From Oceanispirochaeta sp. (lineage in GTDB: Bacteria; Spirochaetota; Spirochaetia; DSM-2461), in assembly GCA_963663385.2 (NCBI GenBank), contig CAXXXD010000002.1, forward strand, positions 800,001 through 864,000: a DNA stretch of 64,000 nt, in the 5' to 3' direction. Both the position numbers and the translations under genes were made by a program. Positions 445 to 63,887 of this stretch are shown piece after piece. Numbering within the stretch: position 1 is the stretch's first letter; each line of letters opens with the position of its first letter. The notes beneath the pieces were generated by a model. That model saw only the letters and a program-made list of their open reading frames with translations. It searched no databases and had not been told where the DNA came from.

Positions 445-486
445 GGTATCCGAAGTCCCATGCTAATATTCTCTCCGGAGAATACT

Positions 487-1659
487 ATGAAAATAAAGTC
501 GCCGTTATTTTATATAAAACTGTTTTTACTAATCTTTTCATTCTTCCTTTTTTCATGTGAAGAGGCCGGTAACACAGCTCCCGATGAAGAACTGGAGGAG
601 ATCGTTGAGGAGGAATCAGCCTCCATCTTTTTTAGAAATCCACCGGCCAACGGATCGGCCCTGCCTTCGGAGTTTTCCTTGAATGCGGCCTATTCCATTC
701 CGGATTCCCTTTTTCAGGAAGGGCACAGTTATTCTATTAAGGCCTGTTTTGAAACGGCAGACGGTTGCTATGAGGCGGCAGATTTCCCTCTGACAGAACA
801 GTCTAAGACATCCTTCTCCATCAGTTTTGCCCTTACCAGTGAGGGGCTTCCTACCGATGCGGTTGTTCCTTTCAATCTGTCCCTTGCCCTGTACGATACA
901 ACGGTCGATCCGGCTGTAAAGCTCTGTTCCTCCTCTTCCATTCAGTATAATGGAGTGGCATACGGGAACTGGTATGAAATAGGCTCAAAAATTGTAATTA
1001 CCAATACGCAGATGTGGATCTACCATTACAAGGGGTCCGGCCGGGGGTATGTAGCTGATATGAGGGGCTCCATGGTAAGGTTGGGGCACAACAAATATCA
1101 GACCAATGTGGAACAGGAATTTGATTCTGATACGGGAGAGTGGGTGGATATTCCCGAAGAATATCTTTCCCGGTACGTTTCTGTTGACTACCTAAATGTA
1201 CAGAAAGACGGGCGTCTGCATATCTGTAACGAAGCGGGGGATATTACCCATAATATGCTCCCCTCTGAAAGTGGCTACACCTATGACGCGGATTATTCCG
1301 GTAAGTGGTGGACTGATGATCTGAAGATAGACCCGGCGGATAATGGATCGGTTCTGTGGTTTTCTGATAATTATTTTCAGCTACAGCAGGATGATCAGCA
1401 GAAAGGAGAAGATGCTTCTTTTCCTGTATATGAGATCGGAACAGTCTCAGATAATGCCGGAACCCTGACCCTGAATGTCACTCATGTGGGCAGCGGAGAG
1501 GGCTTTGAGGAAATCGATTCGGGAAAAGAATATACCTTTACCTATGTTTATGATCCTGATGCTGTACCTGATGAGACTCTCGTTCTGACGGGCGGTCCGT
1601 TTATTGACGGCGGTGCCACTGTTTTGAACTTTGACTTATCCAGTAAATATGAAAAATAG
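487..1659 (+). CDS. Uncharacterised acidic lipoprotein
   Basis: GGAG RBS before ATG 487; basic N-terminus, hydrophobic stretch and lipobox FLFS-C; long ORF followed by a terminator. Confidence 0.75.
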   Translation: MKIKSPLFYIKLFLLIFSFFLFSCEEAGNTAPDEELEEIVEEESASIFFRNPPANGSALPSEFSLNAAYSIPDSLFQEGHSYSIKACFETADGCYEAADFPLTEQSKTSFSISFALTSEGLPTDAVVPFNLSLALYDTTVDPAVKLCSSSSIQYNGVAYGNWYEIGSKIVITNTQMWIYHYKGSGRGYVADMRGSMVRLGHNKYQTNVEQEFDSDTGEWVDIPEEYLSRYVSVDYLNVQKDGRLHICNEAGDITHNMLPSESGYTYDADYSGKWWTDDLKIDPADNGSVLWFSDNYFQLQQDDQQKGEDASFPVYEIGTVSDNAGTLTLNVTHVGSGEGFEEIDSGKEYTFTYVYDPDAVPDETLVLTGGPFIDGGATVLNFDLSSKYEK

Positions 1660-1849: not shown

Positions 1850-4800
1850 ATGGAACTTAAAACAATCAGAGAATATTTCAAGTATATGGTCACCGCCCGG
1901 GAATTGGATCTTCTGGAACAGAGTTATACGGGAAGGGGCGAAGCTTTCTTTCATGTTTCCGGTGCCGGTCATGAAGGTTCCTGTATTTTAAATAGTGTAT
2001 TGGAGGAGCAGGATTATCTCCATGTCCATTACAGGGATAAAGCCCTGATGATGGCCCGGGGTATGGATCCCGAAATGTTTTTTCTGTCCCTTTTTAATAA
2101 AGAAGGATCTCATTCCAAAGGACGGCAGATGGTCGCCCATATGAGCGACCCCGACCATAATATCCTCAGTATGGCCGGTCCTGTGGGAAACAGTAACCTC
2201 CATGCTGCAGGTGTGGCAGAAGCTGTAAAAGGGCAGAAAGGAAATCCCGTTGTTCTCAGTTCTCTGGGAGATGGAATGTCTCAGGAAGGGGATGTGCTCG
2301 AAGCCATAGCCCATGCGGCCCGGAAAGAACTTCCGGTTCTTTTTCTGGTTCAGGACAACGGTTTTGCTATTTCTACCAAAACAAAAGGGAATACCTTTTT
2401 TTCCCGGCCGGAAGGAGAGGCAGATTCGTTCTACGGCATACCCATTACCAGAATGGATGGCCGCTACCCCCAGAACCTTTACAGGCCCATGAAAGAGGTC
2501 GTGGACGGTATCCGGCAAACGGGGAAACCCGCCATCATTGTCATGTCCGTGGAACGCCTTCACAGTCATACCAATGCGGATGACCATAGAGTCTACCGGA
2601 CCGATGAAGAGATCAAAGCCCTTCATGAATCAAGTGATCCGGTGGATCAGCTGCACAGCTGGCTTCTGGATCAGGGTGTTTCGGAAGATGAACTGGCTGC
2701 AGAACGGCAAGAGATTATCGCCGATCTGAAAGAGAAGGCCCATAAAGCCCAGATTTCTCCCGAACCCGAGCCTGTCTATACAGCCAAAAAAGAGATCCCT
2801 GCTCATCTCACCGACCGGAAGCAGGAGTACCGCGGTACCCCCGGCAAGGAAGAACTGACCATGCTGGAAGCGATTAAGGAGACCCTCCGTTTTCACCTGG
2901 ACCGTAATCCCGCAGTAGAACTGTTCGGGGAGGACCTGGAAGATCCCAAGGGGGATGTATTCGGACTGACCAAAACCCTTTCGACCCAGTTCCCCGGACG
3001 GGTTGAAAACAGTCCTCTGGCGGAAGCCTCCATTGTCGGTCTGTCTATCGGGCGGGCTCTGGCGGGTAAACACCCTGTTGCTTTCCTCCAGTTTGCCGAC
3101 TTTCTGCCTATTGCCTTCAATCAGCTGTGGGCCGATGCAGGGAGCATGTACTGGCGAACCGAAGGCGGATGGGAGTGCCCCATGATCATTATGGTCTCCT
3201 GTGGTGCCTACAAGCCCGGAATCGGTCCCTTCCATGCCTCCAGTATGGAAGCCGTTGCCGCGCATATTCCCGGTATCGATGTGGTTATGCCCTCTACAGC
3301 AGGAGATGCTGCCGGTCTGCTCAACGCGGCCTTTGAATCGGGAAGACCAACCGTATATTTCTATCCTAAAGTTTGCCTCAACGATGTTCAGGCAAAAACA
3401 AGTTCTGATGTTTCCCGCCAGCTTGTTCCCCTGGGAATTGCCAGAAAAGTCAGCGAAGGCGAACACGTCACCTTTGTTTCATACGGCAATACAATAAGGC
3501 TGTGTCAGAAAGCGGCGGAAGCTCTGGGTAAACACAATATTACAAGTGATCTTATTGACCTTCGTTCCATCTCCCCCTGGGATCAGGAGATGGTTCTGGA
3601 ATCAGCCGAAAAAACAGGCCGGGTGATTATCGTTCATGAAGAGAATAAAACAGCCTCGATCTCTTCGGAAGTGGCTGCCTTTCTGGCGGAAAAATCCTCC
3701 CGAAAACTGAATATTAAACGAATTACCCGGGAAGATACCTATGTTCCCTGTAATTTTGATTGTCAGCTGGAAGTCCTTCCTTCCTACAAAGGAATTCTGG
3801 AAGCGGCTGCAGAGATGTTCGGCGGATCTGTCTGCTGGAAGAAGGAAGAGCTGGCTCAGGCCGGTTCTTTTACGGTCGAGATAATCGGTACCAGTCCGGC
3901 AGATGAAACGGCTACCGTTATTGAATGGAAGGTTGAAGCCGGTGATACCATTGAAGAGGGTGATCTGCTGGCTGAGATCGAAGCGGACAAGGCGGCAGCC
4001 GAGATGAAGTCCCCCGTTTCCGGTGTTGTCGAAGAGCTGATCCTGGAGGAGGGAGAGGCTGTCGCCATCGGCGCCCCCGCTCTCAAGGTAAAAACCAGCG
4101 AAACTGCCGCGGTCTCTCTCAAGCCTAAAACCAAAGAGGAGCCCGGGGAACCCGTTATCACCGGGATGACAGTTGTTTCAGAGACAAAAGATTCCGTTCC
4201 GGCAGCAGCCTCCGGAGACCGCCGCCCCTTCCTGCTGGATATTGCAGGTGTGCAGGGCAGCCGGGAAGTCCTGAATGATGAGATTATGGAATCCTGTTCC
4301 GGATGGAGTGAGGGCGAAATCCTGAAAATGACGGGAATCGAGAAGCGGAACTGGATTGGTGAAGGGGAGGATGTGGTCTCCCTGGCCAGTAAAGCCGCCA
4401 AAACTGTTCTTGAGAGAAACAGCCTTACCCTGGATGATCTCAGTCTGATTCTTGTTTCAAGCGGAACCCCCGGTACCATGACACCTTCCCTGGCAACACG
4501 GGTGCAATACAACTTAATGCCCGACGGCAAGAGGCAGCCGGCCTGTGCCGCTTTTGATATCAATGCCGCCTGTTCCGGTTACCTGTACGGTCTGCAGTCC
4601 TCCTGGGACTTTCTGAACAGCCGGCCCGACGGGCTTATTCTGCTTATTACGGCTGAGGTTCTGTCCCCCCTGGTGGATCCTTCCGATAAATCCACATCTG
4701 CTGTGTTTGGCGACGGCGCAACCGCCTCTCTGATCGCCGGAGTGGACCACGCTCTGAAGAACAGGGGGCGGGCCAGGATTTTCCGGCCCGTTACCGCAGC

Positions 4801-5191
4801 ATCGGGTGAACCCGGGGATATCCTGACGGTTCCCGCCAATCCGGCCGAGACTATCTATATGCATGGTCCCAAAGTGTATCTGGAAGCTGTTGCCAGCATG
4901 ATCTCTGTTCTGGATGATGCCTGTAAACAGGAGGAGAAGGGACTGGATGAACTGTCCCTGATTGTCCCGCATCAGGCTAATCAGAGGATTATCAATGCGG
5001 TACGTCAGAGACTGAAGATCGAAGAAGATCAGATATACAGCGAGATCCGCTACAGGGGAAATACTTCCTCCTGTACAATCCCGTTCTGTCTGGAATCCCT
5101 GATACAGGACGGGCGTTCCGGCCAGACCCTCGGGATGACAGCTTTCGGCGGCGGTTTCACCTCCGCCGGGGGACTGCTGGAAATCCTTTAA
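1850..5191 (+). CDS. Fusion protein: 2-oxoacid dehydrogenase E1alpha + E1beta + lipoyl domain + 3-oxoacyl-ACP synthase III (FabH-like)
   Basis: TPP motif GDG...QDN; E1beta GED...SPLAE...QFADF; lipoyl motif EADKA (K714); KASIII triad AACSG (C908), PHQAN (H1041), GNTS (N1071), C-terminal FGGGF. Confidence 0.93.
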   Translation: MELKTIREYFKYMVTARELDLLEQSYTGRGEAFFHVSGAGHEGSCILNSVLEEQDYLHVHYRDKALMMARGMDPEMFFLSLFNKEGSHSKGRQMVAHMSDPDHNILSMAGPVGNSNLHAAGVAEAVKGQKGNPVVLSSLGDGMSQEGDVLEAIAHAARKELPVLFLVQDNGFAISTKTKGNTFFSRPEGEADSFYGIPITRMDGRYPQNLYRPMKEVVDGIRQTGKPAIIVMSVERLHSHTNADDHRVYRTDEEIKALHESSDPVDQLHSWLLDQGVSEDELAAERQEIIADLKEKAHKAQISPEPEPVYTAKKEIPAHLTDRKQEYRGTPGKEELTMLEAIKETLRFHLDRNPAVELFGEDLEDPKGDVFGLTKTLSTQFPGRVENSPLAEASIVGLSIGRALAGKHPVAFLQFADFLPIAFNQLWADAGSMYWRTEGGWECPMIIMVSCGAYKPGIGPFHASSMEAVAAHIPGIDVVMPSTAGDAAGLLNAAFESGRPTVYFYPKVCLNDVQAKTSSDVSRQLVPLGIARKVSEGEHVTFVSYGNTIRLCQKAAEALGKHNITSDLIDLRSISPWDQEMVLESAEKTGRVIIVHEENKTASISSEVAAFLAEKSSRKLNIKRITREDTYVPCNFDCQLEVLPSYKGILEAAAEMFGGSVCWKKEELAQAGSFTVEIIGTSPADETATVIEWKVEAGDTIEEGDLLAEIEADKAAAEMKSPVSGVVEELILEEGEAVAIGAPALKVKTSETAAVSLKPKTKEEPGEPVITGMTVVSETKDSVPAAASGDRRPFLLDIAGVQGSREVLNDEIMESCSGWSEGEILKMTGIEKRNWIGEGEDVVSLASKAAKTVLERNSLTLDDLSLILVSSGTPGTMTPSLATRVQYNLMPDGKRQPACAAFDINAACSGYLYGLQSSWDFLNSRPDGLILLITAEVLSPLVDPSDKSTSAVFGDGATASLIAGVDHALKNRGRARIFRPVTAASGEPGDILTVPANPAETIYMHGPKVYLEAVASMISVLDDACKQEEKGLDELSLIVPHQANQRIINAVRQRLKIEEDQIYSEIRYRGNTSSCTIPFCLESLIQDGRSGQTLGMTAFGGGFTSAGGLLEIL

Positions 5192-61172: not shown

Positions 61173-62585
61173 CTATTTCCGGGGAGGCATCAGGTCTGTA
61201 ATGGTACCCTCTGCCATTTCCGCAGCCAGAGCAAATGTCTCGGCCAGGGTGGGGTGGGCGTGGATGGTCAGAGCGACATCTTCCAGATCACTGCCCATCT
61301 CGACAGCCAGATTGGCTTCTGCAATCAGTTCCCCTGCGTTGTTCCCTGTTATACCGGCGCCCAGAATCCGTTTCGTTTCCGGATCATAGAGTACTTTGGT
61401 GGTCCCTTCGTTCCGTCCGTTGCTTAAAGACCGGCCGCTGGCAGCCCAGGGAAATACGCCTTTTTCGAAGGAGATATTCCTTTCGGCCGCTTCTTTTTCT
61501 GTCAGTCCCGTCCAGGCTATTTCCGGATCCGTATAGGCGACGCTGGGGATACTGACCGGAGAAAAATCGGAAGCTTCCCCTCCGATAACTTCGGCGGCAA
61601 CCTTTCCTTCAGCGACGGCTTTATGGGCAAGCATGGGCTGTCCAGTTGCGTCTCCGATGGCATATATATGAGAAAGAGCGGTCTGCCGTTTCTCATTGAC
61701 GGGAATAAATCCCTTTTCATCCGGTTCCAGTCCCAGCGCATCCAGACCGATATCATCCGTATTGGGCCTGCGGCCTATGCTTATCAGGATACGGTCGTAG
61801 GTCTCGCTTTCAGGCGCTTTTTTCCCTTCCATGCTGACAATAAGGCCTTCCGGAGAAGGTTCCACTTTCGTTACCCTGGTACCTGTATAAACAGCTCTGG
61901 TAACTTTTTTCAGCATCCTTGCCAGGGGCTTTACCAGATCGGCATCCGCCTGGGGGATAATCTGGTCCATCAGTTCCACAACAGTTACTTCCGAACCGAA
62001 GGAGCCGTAAACCGTAGCCATTTCCAGTCCGATTATGCCTCCGCCGACAATCAGCAGTTTTCCGGGGATCTCTTCCATTTTCAGGGCATCAGCCGAATCC
62101 ATAACCCGGGGATCGTCATAGGGGAAGCCGGGCAGTTCCACAACCCTGGATCCCGAGGCGATAATGGCATTTTTAAAAGTAACGGCAGTTTCTTCTTCCC
62201 CGGATGTCTCCAGAGTATTCGGTCCTGTAAACCGGCCCGTCCCTTTTATGATCCGTACTTTTCTCTGCCTGGCCAATCCGGCCAGCCCTTTGGTCAGGGA
62301 CCCGACCACTCTGTCTTTATGCCCCCTGATCCCTTCAAGGTCAAACTGCGGCTCCCCGAAGCTGATCCCCGATTTCCCGGCTTCTTCCGCTTCCCTGACG
62401 ATGGAAGCCAGGTGGAGCAGTGACTTGGAGGGGATGCATCCTTCATTAAGGCAAACCCCTCCCAGGGTATCCCGTTTTTCTACAAGCGCCACGCTCTGTC
62501 CCAGGTCCGCCGCACGGAAAGCCGCCGTATATCCTCCGGGACCGCCTCCCAGGACCAGAGTGTCTATATTAATGTTTTCAGTCAT
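61173..62585 (-). CDS. lpdA: Dihydrolipoamide dehydrogenase (E3)
   Basis: GGGPGGY, GGVCLNEGCIPSK, GGGIIGLE, MLAHKA, HAHPTLAE. Confidence 0.97.
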   Translation of the reverse strand: MTENINIDTLVLGGGPGGYTAAFRAADLGQSVALVEKRDTLGGVCLNEGCIPSKSLLHLASIVREAEEAGKSGISFGEPQFDLEGIRGHKDRVVGSLTKGLAGLARQRKVRIIKGTGRFTGPNTLETSGEEETAVTFKNAIIASGSRVVELPGFPYDDPRVMDSADALKMEEIPGKLLIVGGGIIGLEMATVYGSFGSEVTVVELMDQIIPQADADLVKPLARMLKKVTRAVYTGTRVTKVEPSPEGLIVSMEGKKAPESETYDRILISIGRRPNTDDIGLDALGLEPDEKGFIPVNEKRQTALSHIYAIGDATGQPMLAHKAVAEGKVAAEVIGGEASDFSPVSIPSVAYTDPEIAWTGLTEKEAAERNISFEKGVFPWAASGRSLSNGRNEGTTKVLYDPETKRILGAGITGNNAGELIAEANLAVEMGSDLEDVALTIHAHPTLAETFALAAEMAEGTITDLMPPRK

Positions 62586-62615
62586 ATAATCTCCTTGATT
62601 TTGCGCTTTTCATCA

Positions 62616-63887
62616 TTATAGCAGTATTTTTTTCATATCTTCCAGTAATTCTGCTAAATATCTGGTAAATCTTGCCGCCATGGCACCGTCTATCACCCTA
62701 TGGTCATAAGACAGGCTCAGGGGGAGTATCATCCGGGGGAGAAATTCCCCGTCCTGCCAGACCGGCTGCCTTCTGGATCGGGCCATTCCCAGTATGGCTA
62801 CCTCGGGAGGGTTAATAATAGGAGTAAACCCTGTTCCTCCGATACCGCCCAGATTGGATATGGAGATACCTGCTCCCTCCAGATCCCCGGGAGTCAGATC
62901 TCCATTCCGCCCTTTTCCCGCCAGGTCATTTATATCCCGGACAATTTCAGTCAGGGACTTGGTATCCACATTTTTAATGACAGGAACAAGAAGTCCCTGA
63001 GGGGTATCCACGGCAATGCCTATATTATAGTACTTCCGGAGGATAAGGGAACCCGAACTCCTGTCCAGCACAGCATTAAACCGGGGGAACTCTTCAACAG
63101 CCTTATAGAGTGCTTTCACCATAAAAGCCAGTGAACTGAACTTTACTCCATGGGTTCCCTTTCCATTCAGTTCATCTCGCCATATTTCCAGATTGGTTAT
63201 ATCCGCTTCATCAAAGTGTGTCACATGGGGGATATTCACCCAGCTGGCATGAAGGCGTGATGAGGAGATTTTCTGAATGCGGGTCAACTCTTCAAAAGCC
63301 ACCGGCCCGAAGCGGGAGGGATCTGTTTCGGGCAGAGAGGGCAGGCTTGCAGAACCCGGGGGATTTTCAAGAGCCTTTCTCACAAAGTCCTGAACATCTT
63401 CTCTGCGAACCCTTCCTTTTGGCCCTGTCCCCTGGATAAGGTTAAGATCAGCTCCCAGTTCTCTGGCAAAATGCCGGATAGAGGGGGAGGCGTGGATACC
63501 GGGGGAAGAGGGCGGTTTGTCAGGCGGTTTTATATCCTTTGATGTCTGTTCTCTCTCTGCCTGTTCTGTTTCTGCCGTACTCTCCCCGGGGATCTCTCCT
63601 GTATCCGCTGTTTCTTCCGCTTCCTTTGTCTCTTCTTTCTTCTCTTCCATGCTGACCAGGCAGATCAAATCTCCGCTTTTCAGCATATCCCCCTCTTTCA
63701 CCTTCACTTCCCGGACAGTCCCGTCCAGAGGGGAGGGGATCTCTATAACAGCCTTATCGCTTTCCAGTGACAGAAGGGGCTCTTCTTTTTGTATCTTTTT
63801 TCCTGAACGGATAAACAGTTCTCCCACCGGAACGGCTTCGGAACTTCCCAGGTCCGGAACGTGTATTTCCTGTAAATTATTTGCCAT
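62616..63887 (-). CDS. aceF: Dihydrolipoamide acetyltransferase (PDH E2), single lipoyl domain
   Basis: LESDKA lipoyl site, HASPSIR subunit-binding domain, IPHVT, SLSYDHRVIDGA. Confidence 0.93.
   Translation of the reverse strand: MANNLQEIHVPDLGSSEAVPVGELFIRSGKKIQKEEPLLSLESDKAVIEIPSPLDGTVREVKVKEGDMLKSGDLICLVSMEEKKEETKEAEETADTGEIPGESTAETEQAEREQTSKDIKPPDKPPSSPGIHASPSIRHFARELGADLNLIQGTGPKGRVRREDVQDFVRKALENPPGSASLPSLPETDPSRFGPVAFEELTRIQKISSSRLHASWVNIPHVTHFDEADITNLEIWRDELNGKGTHGVKFSSLAFMVKALYKAVEEFPRFNAVLDRSSGSLILRKYYNIGIAVDTPQGLLVPVIKNVDTKSLTEIVRDINDLAGKGRNGDLTPGDLEGAGISISNLGGIGGTGFTPIINPPEVAILGMARSRRQPVWQDGEFLPRMILPLSLSYDHRVIDGAMAARFTRYLAELLEDMKKILL

Follow-up and report, generated by a model that had tools for sequence, protein, structure and literature searches.

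An E1-lipoyl-KAS III fusion of spirochaetes and other bacteria whose ketosynthase domain has lost CoA-site residues, suggesting a lipoyl-borne acyl donor

To our knowledge, in all the textbook pathways, type II fatty-acid synthesis begins with FabH (KAS III) being primed by acyl-CoA. In Bacillus, Staphylococcus and Listeria, the branched-chain 2-oxoacid dehydrogenase complex (E1alpha2beta2/E2/E3) feeds FabH via acyl-CoA. A route without CoA, from thiamine diphosphate to a lipoyl arm and from there to a carrier protein, is known from the systems of the QncN-QncL-QncM type (quinocarcin/naphthyridinomycin), in which an NRPS receives a C2 glycolyl unit from a transketolase-like E1 and an E2-like acyltransferase. 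The gene described here, from Oceanispirochaeta sp., is proposed to encode a 2-oxoacid dehydrogenase module without an E2, where a ketosynthase of the FabH type stands in for the E2 acyltransferase core. It shares with the branched-chain complex plus FabH the start and the end of the route, i.e., thiamine-diphosphate-dependent 2-oxoacid decarboxylation, a lipoyl arm and KAS III priming; however, it has neither the E2 core nor the E3-binding domain, carries everything but E3 on one polypeptide, and presumably skips the acyl-CoA intermediate. Likewise, its layout recalls that of an E2 such as the host AceF, since in both proteins a lipoyl domain on a flexible linker lies N-terminal of the acyl-receiving domain; nevertheless, the receiver is a ketosynthase of the thiolase fold, acting by way of a covalent Cys intermediate, instead of the chloramphenicol-acetyltransferase-like core (PF00198), and the acceptor would be malonyl-ACP instead of CoA. 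The CoA-free route proposed here is like that of the QncN-QncL-QncM type, with the difference that the receiver in the fusion is a KAS III.

In the window (the whole stretch of 64,000 nucleotides that was analysed), a single frame at 1850..5191 of the + strand encodes the 1113-residue ORF P0001, with the order E1alpha-E1beta-lipoyl-linker-KASIII; all the features given below for this protein are on the same strand. Pfam detected in it E1_dh, Transket_pyr, Transketolase_C, Biotin_lipoyl, ACP_syn_III and ACP_syn_III_C, and found neither 2-oxoacid_dh (PF00198, the E2 core) nor E3_binding within 1850-5191. The E1 alpha part (E1_dh, residues 12-308; 1883..2773) scored 147.7 bits, and the E1 beta part (2852..3760) is formed by Transket_pyr (residues 335-507, 74.2 bits) and Transketolase_C (residues 531-637, 96.1 bits). 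The lipoyl domain spans residues ~673-750 (3866..4099), with Biotin_lipoyl at 688-743 scoring 57.2 bits against a cut-off of 22.1, and carries the presumed lipoyl-lysine K714 (codon 3989..3991) at the tip of the hairpin, in an E-A-D-K-A motif. It is followed by a linker without an E3-binding domain (residues 751-798; 4100..4243), which has 48 residues here and a median of ~54 in the family (range 34-110), and by the FabH-like KASIII domain (residues 799-1111; 4244..5182), where ACP_syn_III (60.1 bits, cut-off 24) and ACP_syn_III_C (75.5 bits, cut-off 26.6) both score above their gathering thresholds. An AF2 model of residues 668-1113 had a mean pLDDT of 93.8 and a pTM of 0.81, with values of 93-98 for the lipoyl domain and of 59-77 for the linker.

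The solved alpha chains nearest to the E1 alpha part are those of BCKDH (1dtw_A, 113.7 bits; 1um9_A, 106.5 bits), and PDH E1alpha scored 78 bits; because of this proximity to BCKDH E1alpha, the substrate is probably a branched-chain 2-oxoacid. The PDH E1 equivalog models gave scores under their cut-offs (TIGR03181, 170 versus 411; NF008854, 201 versus 454). G140, N170, H240 and E392 are invariant in 141/141 fusions, and position 141 is D in 101 of them and E in 40; we take G140/N170 to be the thiamine-diphosphate motif, and H240 and E392 the catalytic His and Glu of E1. The K714 position is K in 140/141 fusions and in 212/213 aligned lipoyl domains. Judged by these residues, both the fused E1 and its lipoyl arm look active.

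The KASIII domain has the fold of FabH, as indicated by the structures from E. coli (1HN9/1HND), Aquifex (2EBD) and Vibrio (4NHD), with Foldseek TM-scores to target of 0.90-0.93, rmsd values of 2.2-2.6 A and 26-32% identity. The Foldseek matches also included 2aj9 and 2ahb, presumably the structures of the mtFabH W42A/R161A mutant study. The domain differs from FabH in lacking the Trp32/Arg151 pair and in being the C-terminal part of a chain of 1113 residues that has its own E1 and lipoyl arm. It also scores below the cut-offs of the NCBIfam FabH models (NF006829, 227.5 versus 249; TIGR00747, 190.1 versus 292.1), in contrast with the stand-alone FabH of the host, which passes both (403.5 and 359.7). 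The domain was compared with PDB chains by phmmer, and the E. coli numbers were set by hand from the HMMER chain coordinates. The alignment with E. coli FabH (1hn9/1ebl; E ~2e-37) is free of gaps in both CoA-site segments. In the first of these, WSEGEILKMTGI (residues 819-830; 4304..4339) corresponds to T28SDEWIVTRTGI39, so that W819 lies at T28, E823 (4316-4318) at W32, M827 (4328-4330) at R36, and I830 at I39. In the second, DPSDKST (residues 943-949; 4676..4696) corresponds to D147-T153 (DPTDRGT) and places K947 (4688-4690) at R151. The first-pass annotation had read the same three substitutions, W32 to E, R36 to M and R151 to K, from a manual alignment, and HMMER returned them at the same coordinates. 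In FabH, Trp32 and Arg151 sandwich the adenine of CoA, as that annotation had also stated, Thr28 forms a hydrogen bond with the adenine, and Arg36 one with the phosphopantetheine part (PMC4606726). On that description of the site, the adenine-binding pair is absent here, with E823 and K947 in its place. The Cys112/His244/Asn274 triad is represented by C908 (the active-site cysteine; codon 4571..4573), H1041 and N1071 (the catalytic Asn; codon 5060..5062), and the retention claimed from this one sequence extends to the 312/312 aligned domains, in which the triad is invariant. The catalytic H1041 lies in a segment (4970..4987) that also includes N1044 (N247) and R1046 (R249), pantetheine/ACP-side residues that are kept, as in FabH; we take Arg249 to be the ACP-docking residue of that enzyme.

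Family-wide, the first-pass statement that the canonical CoA-binding residues are lost held for W32 and R151 and failed for R36, which is Arg in 138 of the 192 full fusions and Met in 17. Both W32 and R151 are absent from 216 of the 220 lipoyl-bearing homologues counted, all of which are kin (two keep only the W and two only the R); this is the opposite of what would have spoken against the annotation, i.e., fused homologues generally keeping the pair. These W32 counts were anchored on the invariant T-G-I motif, given that MAFFT had shifted the canonical Trp into a column of insertions. In the 192 full fusions, position 32 is Asp/Glu in 169, position 151 is Pro in 81, Phe in 36 and Lys in 19, with others that include A, G, Y, L and H, and position 28 is Trp in 141 and is not so in the planctomycete and proteobacterial members. 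As far as these alignments tell, R36 to M and R151 to K are peculiar to the subclade of this ORF. A tree separated 269 fused-type domains, none with both residues, from 43 stand-alone FabHs (support 0.837), 37 of which have both W32 and R151. The fused clade (n=269) keeps R249 in 260, N247 in 258, G209 in 269, M207 in 261 and Arg/Lys at position 257 in 238. In genome contigs, 75 fused loci (13 of Spirochaetota, 29 of Planctomycetota, 14 of Verrucomicrobiota/PVC, 12 of Alpha- and 7 of Gammaproteobacteria) showed neither W at 32 nor R at 151 in any case, with the triad in 75/75 and R249 in 74/75. A paired control is provided by the six fusion-bearing spirochaete genomes, since in 6/6 the stand-alone FabH has TSDEW...D-R, versus D/E plus P/F/K in the fused domain. 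Positions at least 70% conserved in the neighbouring stand-alone FabHs and at most 10% in the fused clade are only 7 of 325 in the KASIII domain, R151 included, and W32 becomes the eighth when counted by the T-G-I anchor; the loss of the CoA-site residues is thus more than expected by chance.

A reading of these changes as neutral drift, in a KASIII domain that is relaxed or inactive and gives no indication of its donor, is barely credible, for although position 151 varies within the clade and the domain does not reach the cut-offs of the NCBIfam FabH models, it shows high conservation among members of five or more bacterial groups, with identities as low as ~31%, together with an invariant triad, R249 in 260/269, a position 32 newly fixed as Asp/Glu, and the high AF2 confidence given above.

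W32 is also missing from a second architecture. The P0346 family consists of genes for lipoyl-E3_binding-KASIII proteins, which copy the layout of an E2 domain for domain, and in 4/4 loci examined the gene immediately upstream encodes a fused E1alpha-beta; this family is the real split form of the fusion architecture. None of 114 proteins of this type has W32 or R36; R151 is retained by 55 of them, and 113 have both the triad and R249. When 41 canonical, 60 fused and 60 P0346-type domains were placed in one tree, they fell into three clean groups (support 0.615, 0.924 and 0.999); as this tree is unrooted, the W32 losses in the fused and P0346 families are not counted as independent, and the loss may be a single ancient event that has been maintained, if both tethered families share an ancestor. 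Another relative, P0258, with 1942 residues, has KR and PP-binding (ACP) domains after the KASIII, and the KR in this position implies a 3-oxo product (3-oxoacyl-ACP).

The KASIII domain has lost residues that normally grip CoA, a pattern suggesting that it receives its starter directly from the lipoyl arm; the proposal of an acyl donor other than acyl-CoA, such as the lipoyl arm, gains support from the residues of the whole family. It is probable that the lipoyl arm is acylated in cis by E1 and delivers its acyl group straight to Cys908, where condensation with malonyl-ACP follows, so that priming is free of CoA. In such a cycle, (1) the fused E1alpha-beta would decarboxylate a 2-oxoacid, probably branched-chain, on thiamine diphosphate; (2) lipoyl-K714 on the same chain would be reductively acylated by E1; (3) by means of the 48-residue linker, the S-acyl-dihydrolipoyl arm would enter the KASIII tunnel and hand over the acyl group to Cys908 by transthioesterification, with no acyl-CoA intermediate; (4) malonyl-ACP would be decarboxylated by His1041/Asn1071 to yield 3-oxoacyl-ACP; and (5) the arm would be re-oxidised by a free dihydrolipoyl dehydrogenase. 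What is observed is the domain architecture together with the conserved residue pattern; steps 2 to 5 are inferred. Because the donor would be a protein-borne arm and not CoA, W32 and R151 would no longer be needed, and they would have given way to Asp/Glu at 32 and mostly Pro/Phe/Ala/Lys at 151, with the tunnel-lining and ACP-docking residues kept. On balance, we also lean towards the broader view that the lipoyl arm and not CoA is the donor of the ketosynthase, and that a 2-oxoacid is converted directly into 3-oxoacyl-ACP by one polypeptide or by its two-gene sister form. A point against this cycle is that the lipoyl-lysine arm (~14 A) is shorter than the pantetheine arm (~20 A). A complex prediction of the KASIII dimer with the lipoyl domain (668-752) gave a score of 0.33 (runs of 0.47, 0.33 and 0.00; best control 0.00), with contact agreement of at least 21% and partner pLDDT of at least 79. 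This is a weak pass of a mark that was reached by 116/157 solved complexes and 2/215 mismatched pairs, since scores of 0.60 or less were seen in only 18 of the 157 solved complexes and in both of the passing mismatched pairs.

The absence of W32 and R151 is no proof against CoA binding. Residues other than these serve to hold CoA in further condensing enzymes of the thiolase fold, and a Trp at position 28, one helical turn before 32, could in principle take over the stacking of the adenine. Accordingly, the KASIII could still use acyl-CoA bound in another way, by W819 here and by the Arg36 that most relatives retain (138/192, beside the Trp at 28 in 141/192), with the fusion serving only for co-localisation or co-regulation. 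The conservation of the tunnel residues common to the pantetheine of CoA and of ACP (N247, G209, M207) also fits this explanation; yet it seems unlikely, as both residues of the adenine sandwich are gone in nearly all of the lipoyl-bearing homologues, position 32 was re-fixed as acidic, which is unfavourable beside a nucleotide with three phosphates, and the Trp at 28 is not conserved beyond the spirochaetes and some PVC members. The acyl-CoA would in this case come from the general pool or from a separate E2 acting on the lipoyl domain of the fusion, a supply that we doubt to a similar degree. All six fusion-bearing spirochaete genomes have at least one ordinary E2, so that their gene content is compatible with an E2-mediated route to acyl-CoA; in the host, AceF (window 62616-63887) and a second E2 both have the PF00198 core and an E3-binding domain. 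Against this supply, the fusion lacks a domain that would dock to an E2 core, and it would be hard to understand why the P0346 family has a KASIII in place of the E2 core if it still depended on a separate E2.

A different possibility is that the KASIII is a plain acyltransferase, which would transfer the acyl group carried by the lipoyl arm onto holo-ACP, or onto another thiol or hydroxyl acceptor, with no decarboxylative condensation. Some KASIII-like enzymes of natural-product pathways do act as acyltransferases, the position of the domain mimics that of the E2 acyltransferase core, and one planctomycete locus (L076) has an ACP-like gene immediately upstream. This role is nonetheless quite improbable, given that His244 and Asn274, which serve malonyl decarboxylation and not acyl transfer, are invariant in 312/312 domains and 75/75 loci, and that the ketoreductase following the KASIII in P0258 implies a 3-oxo product.

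For the cycle with the lipoyl arm as donor, the genome of the host has what is needed, namely two Lpd genes, a LipA that passes its cut-off with 389 bits, and an LplA-like gene (209.9 versus a cut-off of 280); Lpd also scored over the cut-off in the 5/5 other fusion-bearing genomes. Against the cycle, an E3-binding domain is missing from the fusion, and a conserved neighbour for E3, ACP or lipoate ligase was not seen in the loci examined; for the re-oxidation of the arm, the dihydrolipoyl dehydrogenase of the aceE-aceF-lpd operon, encoded 56 kb from the fusion (61173..62585, - strand), is a candidate partner that would act in trans. If the proposal is correct, it would represent a new hand-over between the two classic swinging arms, lipoyl-lysine and phosphopantetheine, and a CoA-independent priming of fatty-acid or lipid synthesis, in which the supply of branched-chain or other primers is uncoupled from the CoA pool. 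The missing CoA adenine site would then be a sequence signature of the donor switch, recognisable by the absence of Trp32/Arg151, an Asp/Glu at 32, and the retention of the triad and Arg249, and the proposal would explain a large, unstudied and variously named protein family. A literature search, with poor coverage of subscription journals, found no paper on an E1-lipoyl-KASIII protein.

The full-length fusion was present in only 6 of the 301 genomes sampled from the phylum, so that it is not a general spirochaete trait. Carriers of the fusion or of its two-gene sister form belong to Spirochaetota, Planctomycetota, Verrucomicrobiota and Alpha- and Gammaproteobacteria, plus one cyanobacterium, and by record title they include the cultured Rhizobium tropici, R. 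leucaenae, Pontiella sulfatireligans F21, Tautonia sp. and Fastidiosibacter lacustris; the existence of cultured carriers makes the idea of a lipoyl donor directly testable. The fused-type domains that appear as stand-alone proteins (S class, 29) or with only a lipoyl domain (L class, 28) were considered as independent architectures and rejected; since the P0137 and P0152 relatives in genome contigs have fully fused frames at 27/32 and 57/61 loci, these entries are mostly fragments due to gene calls or contig ends. Conserved neighbours coding for E3, ACP or lipoate ligase were not found in four spirochaete genomes and eight loci of other phyla, where the sole lipid-related neighbours, each of them upstream, were a fatty-acid-hydroxylase gene in a pair of loci from Rhizobium and, in Tautonia, an ACP-like ORF. 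The names given to the family in the databases vary, and include transketolase, thiamine pyrophosphate-dependent enzyme, 2-oxoisovalerate dehydrogenase E1 and beta-ketoacyl-ACP synthase 3.

The fusion is encoded by a single ORF (window 1850–5191, + strand, 1113 aa) in which Pfam recognizes E1_dh (residues 12–308), Transket_pyr (335–507), Transketolase_C (531–637), Biotin_lipoyl (688–743), ACP_syn_III (902–964) and ACP_syn_III_C (1028–1111); neither an E2 catalytic core (2-oxoacid_dh) nor an E3-binding domain was found in this ORF with Pfam. A phmmer search against all PDB chains placed residues 813–1109 on E. coli FabH (1hn9, 1ebl; E ~2e-37), with both segments at issue free of gaps. In HMMER chain numbers, T28-S-D-E-W32-I-V-T-R36-T-G-I39 of E. 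coli FabH lies over W819-S-E-G-E823-I-L-K-M827-T-G-I830 (window 4304–4339, +), and D147-P-T-D-R151-G-T over D943-P-S-D-K947-S-T (window 4676–4696, +). The first-pass annotation had placed the changes W32 to E, R36 to M and R151 to K at 4300–4720; both segments fall inside this interval, and E823, M827 and K947 occupy the three positions. It had also stated that the catalytic triad is kept, and C112, H244 and N274 indeed correspond to C908, H1041 and N1071. The five best PDB FabHs displayed in the search all carry Trp and Arg at positions 32 and 151. In the E. coli FabH-CoA structures (PMC4606726), Trp32 and Arg151 sandwich the adenine ring, the role that had been assigned to this pair; the ring is also hydrogen-bonded to Thr28, and Arg36 hydrogen-bonds the phosphopantetheine part of CoA.

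In a word-indexed search with the lipoyl and KASIII part, all six Pfam domains recurred in more than 100 proteins of roughly 1100 aa; most were labelled as spirochaetes, and their database names were generic. Fragments, more divergent fusions and the closest stand-alone FabHs came from a search for shorter proteins and from an exhaustive HMMER search of 1.84 billion cluster representatives that used only the KASIII domain as query. In all, 312 KASIII domains with near-complete coverage were aligned with MAFFT. Position 151 was counted in a gap-free block; positions 28, 32 and 36 were counted by their offset from the invariant T-G-I motif, since MAFFT assigned Trp32 of the canonical enzymes to an insertion. 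In the 192 full fusions, position 32 is Asp in 129, Glu in 40 and Trp in 2, and position 151 is Pro in 81, Phe in 36, Ala in 22, Lys in 19 and Arg in 1. Both residues are missing from 216 of the 220 proteins in which a lipoyl domain was detected (Trp only, 2; Arg only, 2), contrary to a general retention of the pair in fused homologues. The comparison of fused with stand-alone enzymes gave the same picture: in a FastTree phylogeny (branch support 0.837) both residues are present in 37 of 43 domains on the canonical side and in none of 269 on the fused-type side (Trp only, 4; Arg only, 1), whereas the Cys-His-Asn triad is invariant (312/312). Loss of W32 and R151 is thus general, but the other details read from this sequence are local, as position 36 is Arg in 138 of the 192 fusions and Met in just 17, and Lys at 151 is a minority state. 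Of 325 positions, 7 are conserved to at least 70% among canonical domains and shared by no more than 10% of the fused ones; Arg151 belongs to these, and the anchored count adds Trp32 as an eighth. The adenine pair therefore ranks with the clearest contrasts between the two groups and is not an arbitrary choice. Judged from these comparisons, the loss of the CoA-site residues is real and family-general, and appears to be mechanistically telling.

Among 67 Met-starting proteins without an N-terminal extension, 36 have both residues, 2 Trp only and 29 neither. These 29 were rejected as a separate stand-alone class, given that relatives of the homologous protein P0137 lie in E1 and lipoyl frames at 27 of 32 loci; likewise, a form with only lipoyl and KASIII (P0152) was discarded, its relatives lying in full-fusion frames at 57 of 61 loci. 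Such entries are mostly gene-call or contig-end fragments.

Other parts of the active site are retained or follow their own pattern. Fused-type domains (n = 269) keep Arg249 (260; in E. coli FabH, the chief residue for ACP docking), Asn247 (258), Gly209 (269) and Met207 (261), and have Arg or Lys at 257 in 238 cases. Position 211 is Lys or Arg in 180 of 269 fused-type domains versus Glu or Asp in 24 of 43 canonical ones. Position 28, a helical turn ahead of position 32, is Trp in 141 of 192 fusions and at all 13 spirochaete genome loci (W819, window 4304–4306; Thr28 in E. coli), and Met, Arg or His is found in planctomycete and proteobacterial members. The equivalent of E. coli Phe87, assigned by hand from the phmmer alignment, is Thr in 124 of 141 fusions; a small residue at this position, such as that of mycobacterial FabH, makes the primer pocket larger.

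The lipoyl and KASIII alignment, run against one genome per species, gave 580 relatives. At 76 of the best 80 of these 580 loci E1, lipoyl and KASIII share one frame, and by record title the 80 span Spirochaetota, Planctomycetota, Verrucomicrobiota/PVC and Alpha-, Beta- and Gammaproteobacteria, with Rhizobium tropici, R. rhizogenes, R. leucaenae, Tautonia, Fastidiosibacter and Cysteiniphilum as cultured carriers; later scans added Pontiella sulfatireligans and a Xenococcus MAG. Within the best 80, the 75 loci with a near-complete KASIII have no Trp at 32 and no Arg at 151, and keep the triad (75/75) and Arg249 (74/75). The fusion is rare in Spirochaetota, with a full-length match in 6 of 301 sampled genomes. 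Each of these six also encodes a stand-alone FabH, which provides a paired control: in all six pairs T-S-D-E-W and D-R are found in the stand-alone enzyme, against Asp or Glu at 32 and Pro, Phe or Lys at 151 in the fused domain. No conserved E3, ACP or lipoate-ligase neighbour was found among the loci examined. At two Rhizobium loci (L113:2751-3746, L111:2707-3705) the fusion is immediately preceded by a fatty-acid-hydroxylase gene (PF04116), and in Tautonia (L076:3362-3742) by a 126-aa ORF with a phosphopantetheine-attachment site.

The architecture and the residue pattern of the family fit a CoA-free relay from a 2-oxoacid via the lipoyl arm to KASIII, which we consider the probable mechanism. 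E1 would decarboxylate the 2-oxoacid and reductively acylate lipoyl-K714 in cis, the arm would hand the acyl group to Cys908, His1041 and Asn1071 would condense it with malonyl-ACP, and free E3 would re-oxidize the arm. K714 sits in an E-A-D-K-A hairpin, at a position where 212 of 213 aligned lipoyl domains have Lys, and the linker to KASIII has about 48 residues (family median about 54, range 34–110). The E1 part looks competent, with G140, N170, H240 and E392 invariant in 141 of 141 aligned fusions; the first two belong to the thiamine-diphosphate motif, and the others are the catalytic His and Glu. The solved chains nearest to its alpha part are those of branched-chain E1alpha (1dtw_A, 113.7 bits; 1um9_A, 106.5; pyruvate dehydrogenase E1alpha, 78), and the nearest chains to the beta part do not discriminate between E1 types. 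E1alpha-beta and FabH assemblies are both two-fold symmetric, so a fusion homodimer could satisfy both. Loss of the bulky Trp32/Arg151 lid may open the tunnel to an arm that is carried on the protein and is shorter than pantetheine, and the new charges near the tunnel mouth (Asp/Glu at 32, Lys/Arg at 211) might also have a role.

An alternative is that acyl-CoA is still the donor, bound in another manner. Gene content allows an E2 route, since E2 genes occur in the host and in the five other fusion-bearing genomes. The host has an ordinary pyruvate dehydrogenase as well, encoded by a conventional aceE-aceF-lpd operon (window 61173–63887, − strand, continuing into L018:2899-5565; 56 kb from the fusion) with an aceE of 887 aa (TIGR00759, 1399 bits) and an aceF with lipoyl, E3-binding and 2-oxoacid_dh domains. 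The fused KASIII (residues 799–1111) falls below both NCBIfam FabH cut-offs (227.5 vs 249; 190.1 vs 292.1), and the host stand-alone FabH, on another contig beside fabD and fabG, exceeds them (403.5 and 359.7). With the adenine pair gone, we regard acyl-CoA as an unlikely donor. For the CoA-free relay, E3 is available for re-oxidation of the arm, because Lpd genes are present in the host and, over the cut-off, in the five other genomes; in the host, LipA also passes its cut-off and an LplA-like gene is present. A second host cluster, on another contig (L019:4043-9232), encodes an E2 of 456 aa, a dihydrolipoyl dehydrogenase of 444 aa and a fused E1alpha-beta of 819 aa that resembles the E1 half of the fusion but is paired with a normal E2.

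It is also conceivable, though improbable, that the fused KASIII transfers the acyl group without condensation; the invariant His and Asn of the triad speak for condensation, and the homologue P0258 (1942 aa) bears on this point. Here KASIII is followed by KR and a phosphopantetheine-attachment (ACP) domain, an order that would be expected if its product is 3-oxoacyl-ACP. The whole chain, E1alpha-E1beta-lipoyl-KASIII-KR-ACP, resembles a PKS-like loading and first-reduction module.

A second relative, P0346 (511 aa; lipoyl-E3_binding-KASIII), is ordered like an E2 in which a ketosynthase stands in for the core. Well over 100 relatives of 490–550 aa were found, including Salinispira, Spirochaeta lutea, Ereboglobus and Opitutaceae, and the gene lies directly 3' of a fused E1alpha-beta gene (~659 aa) at four of four loci examined (L240:4009-7536, L241:3908-7557, L242:4006-7494, L243:3913-7542). 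In this family (n = 114) position 32 is Tyr (56), Glu (55), Ala (2) or Gly (1) and never Trp; position 36 is Val (61), Leu (52) or Ile (1) and never Arg; position 151 is Arg in about half (55), otherwise His (42), Lys (13), Pro (2) or Gln (2); the triad and Arg249 occur together in 113. Every lipoyl-tethered KASIII family found has thus lost part of the nucleotide site and kept the catalytic and ACP-side residues. Drift as the explanation of the changes is very hard to credit. An unrooted tree separates canonical, fused and P0346-type domains cleanly into three groups (support 0.615, 0.924 and 0.999); it fits a tethered ancestor shared by the latter two as well as separate origins, so two independent losses are not claimed. 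Some probability is reserved for an explanation beyond the relay, altered CoA binding, plain transfer and drift. Full-text searches, with most subscription journals outside their coverage, returned no relevant paper on an E1-lipoyl-KASIII fusion; relative to that literature, the novelty is that KAS III and 2-oxoacid dehydrogenase modules are recombined with an altered donor site.

AlphaFold2 modelled residues 668–1113 (113 aligned sequences) with a mean pLDDT of 93.8, a pTM of 0.81 and a linker pLDDT of 59–77, and Foldseek matched the KASIII part to FabH structures with TM-scores to target of 0.90–0.93. A complex prediction of the KASIII dimer with the lipoyl domain, using a custom alignment and a three-chain set-up unlike those of the calibration, scored 0.33 (runs 0.47, 0.33 and 0.00) against 0.00 for the best control, with contact agreement between runs of at least 21% and a partner pLDDT of at least 79. 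In the calibration, 116 of 157 solved complexes passed the mark, as did 2 of 215 mismatched pairs; scores of 0.60 or less account for just 18 of the 157 yet for both passing mismatches. The prediction lends weak support to a KASIII-lipoyl pairing.

Directly upstream of the fusion, a 399-aa ORF (window 460–1659, +) matches no Pfam family; its N-terminus, by eye, is hydrophobic and then has a Cys, as in lipoproteins. The host also has a third KASIII-like ORF of 330 aa (L003:1489-2481; FabH model, 108 bits, cut-off 249), which is translationally coupled to a 216-aa ORF.
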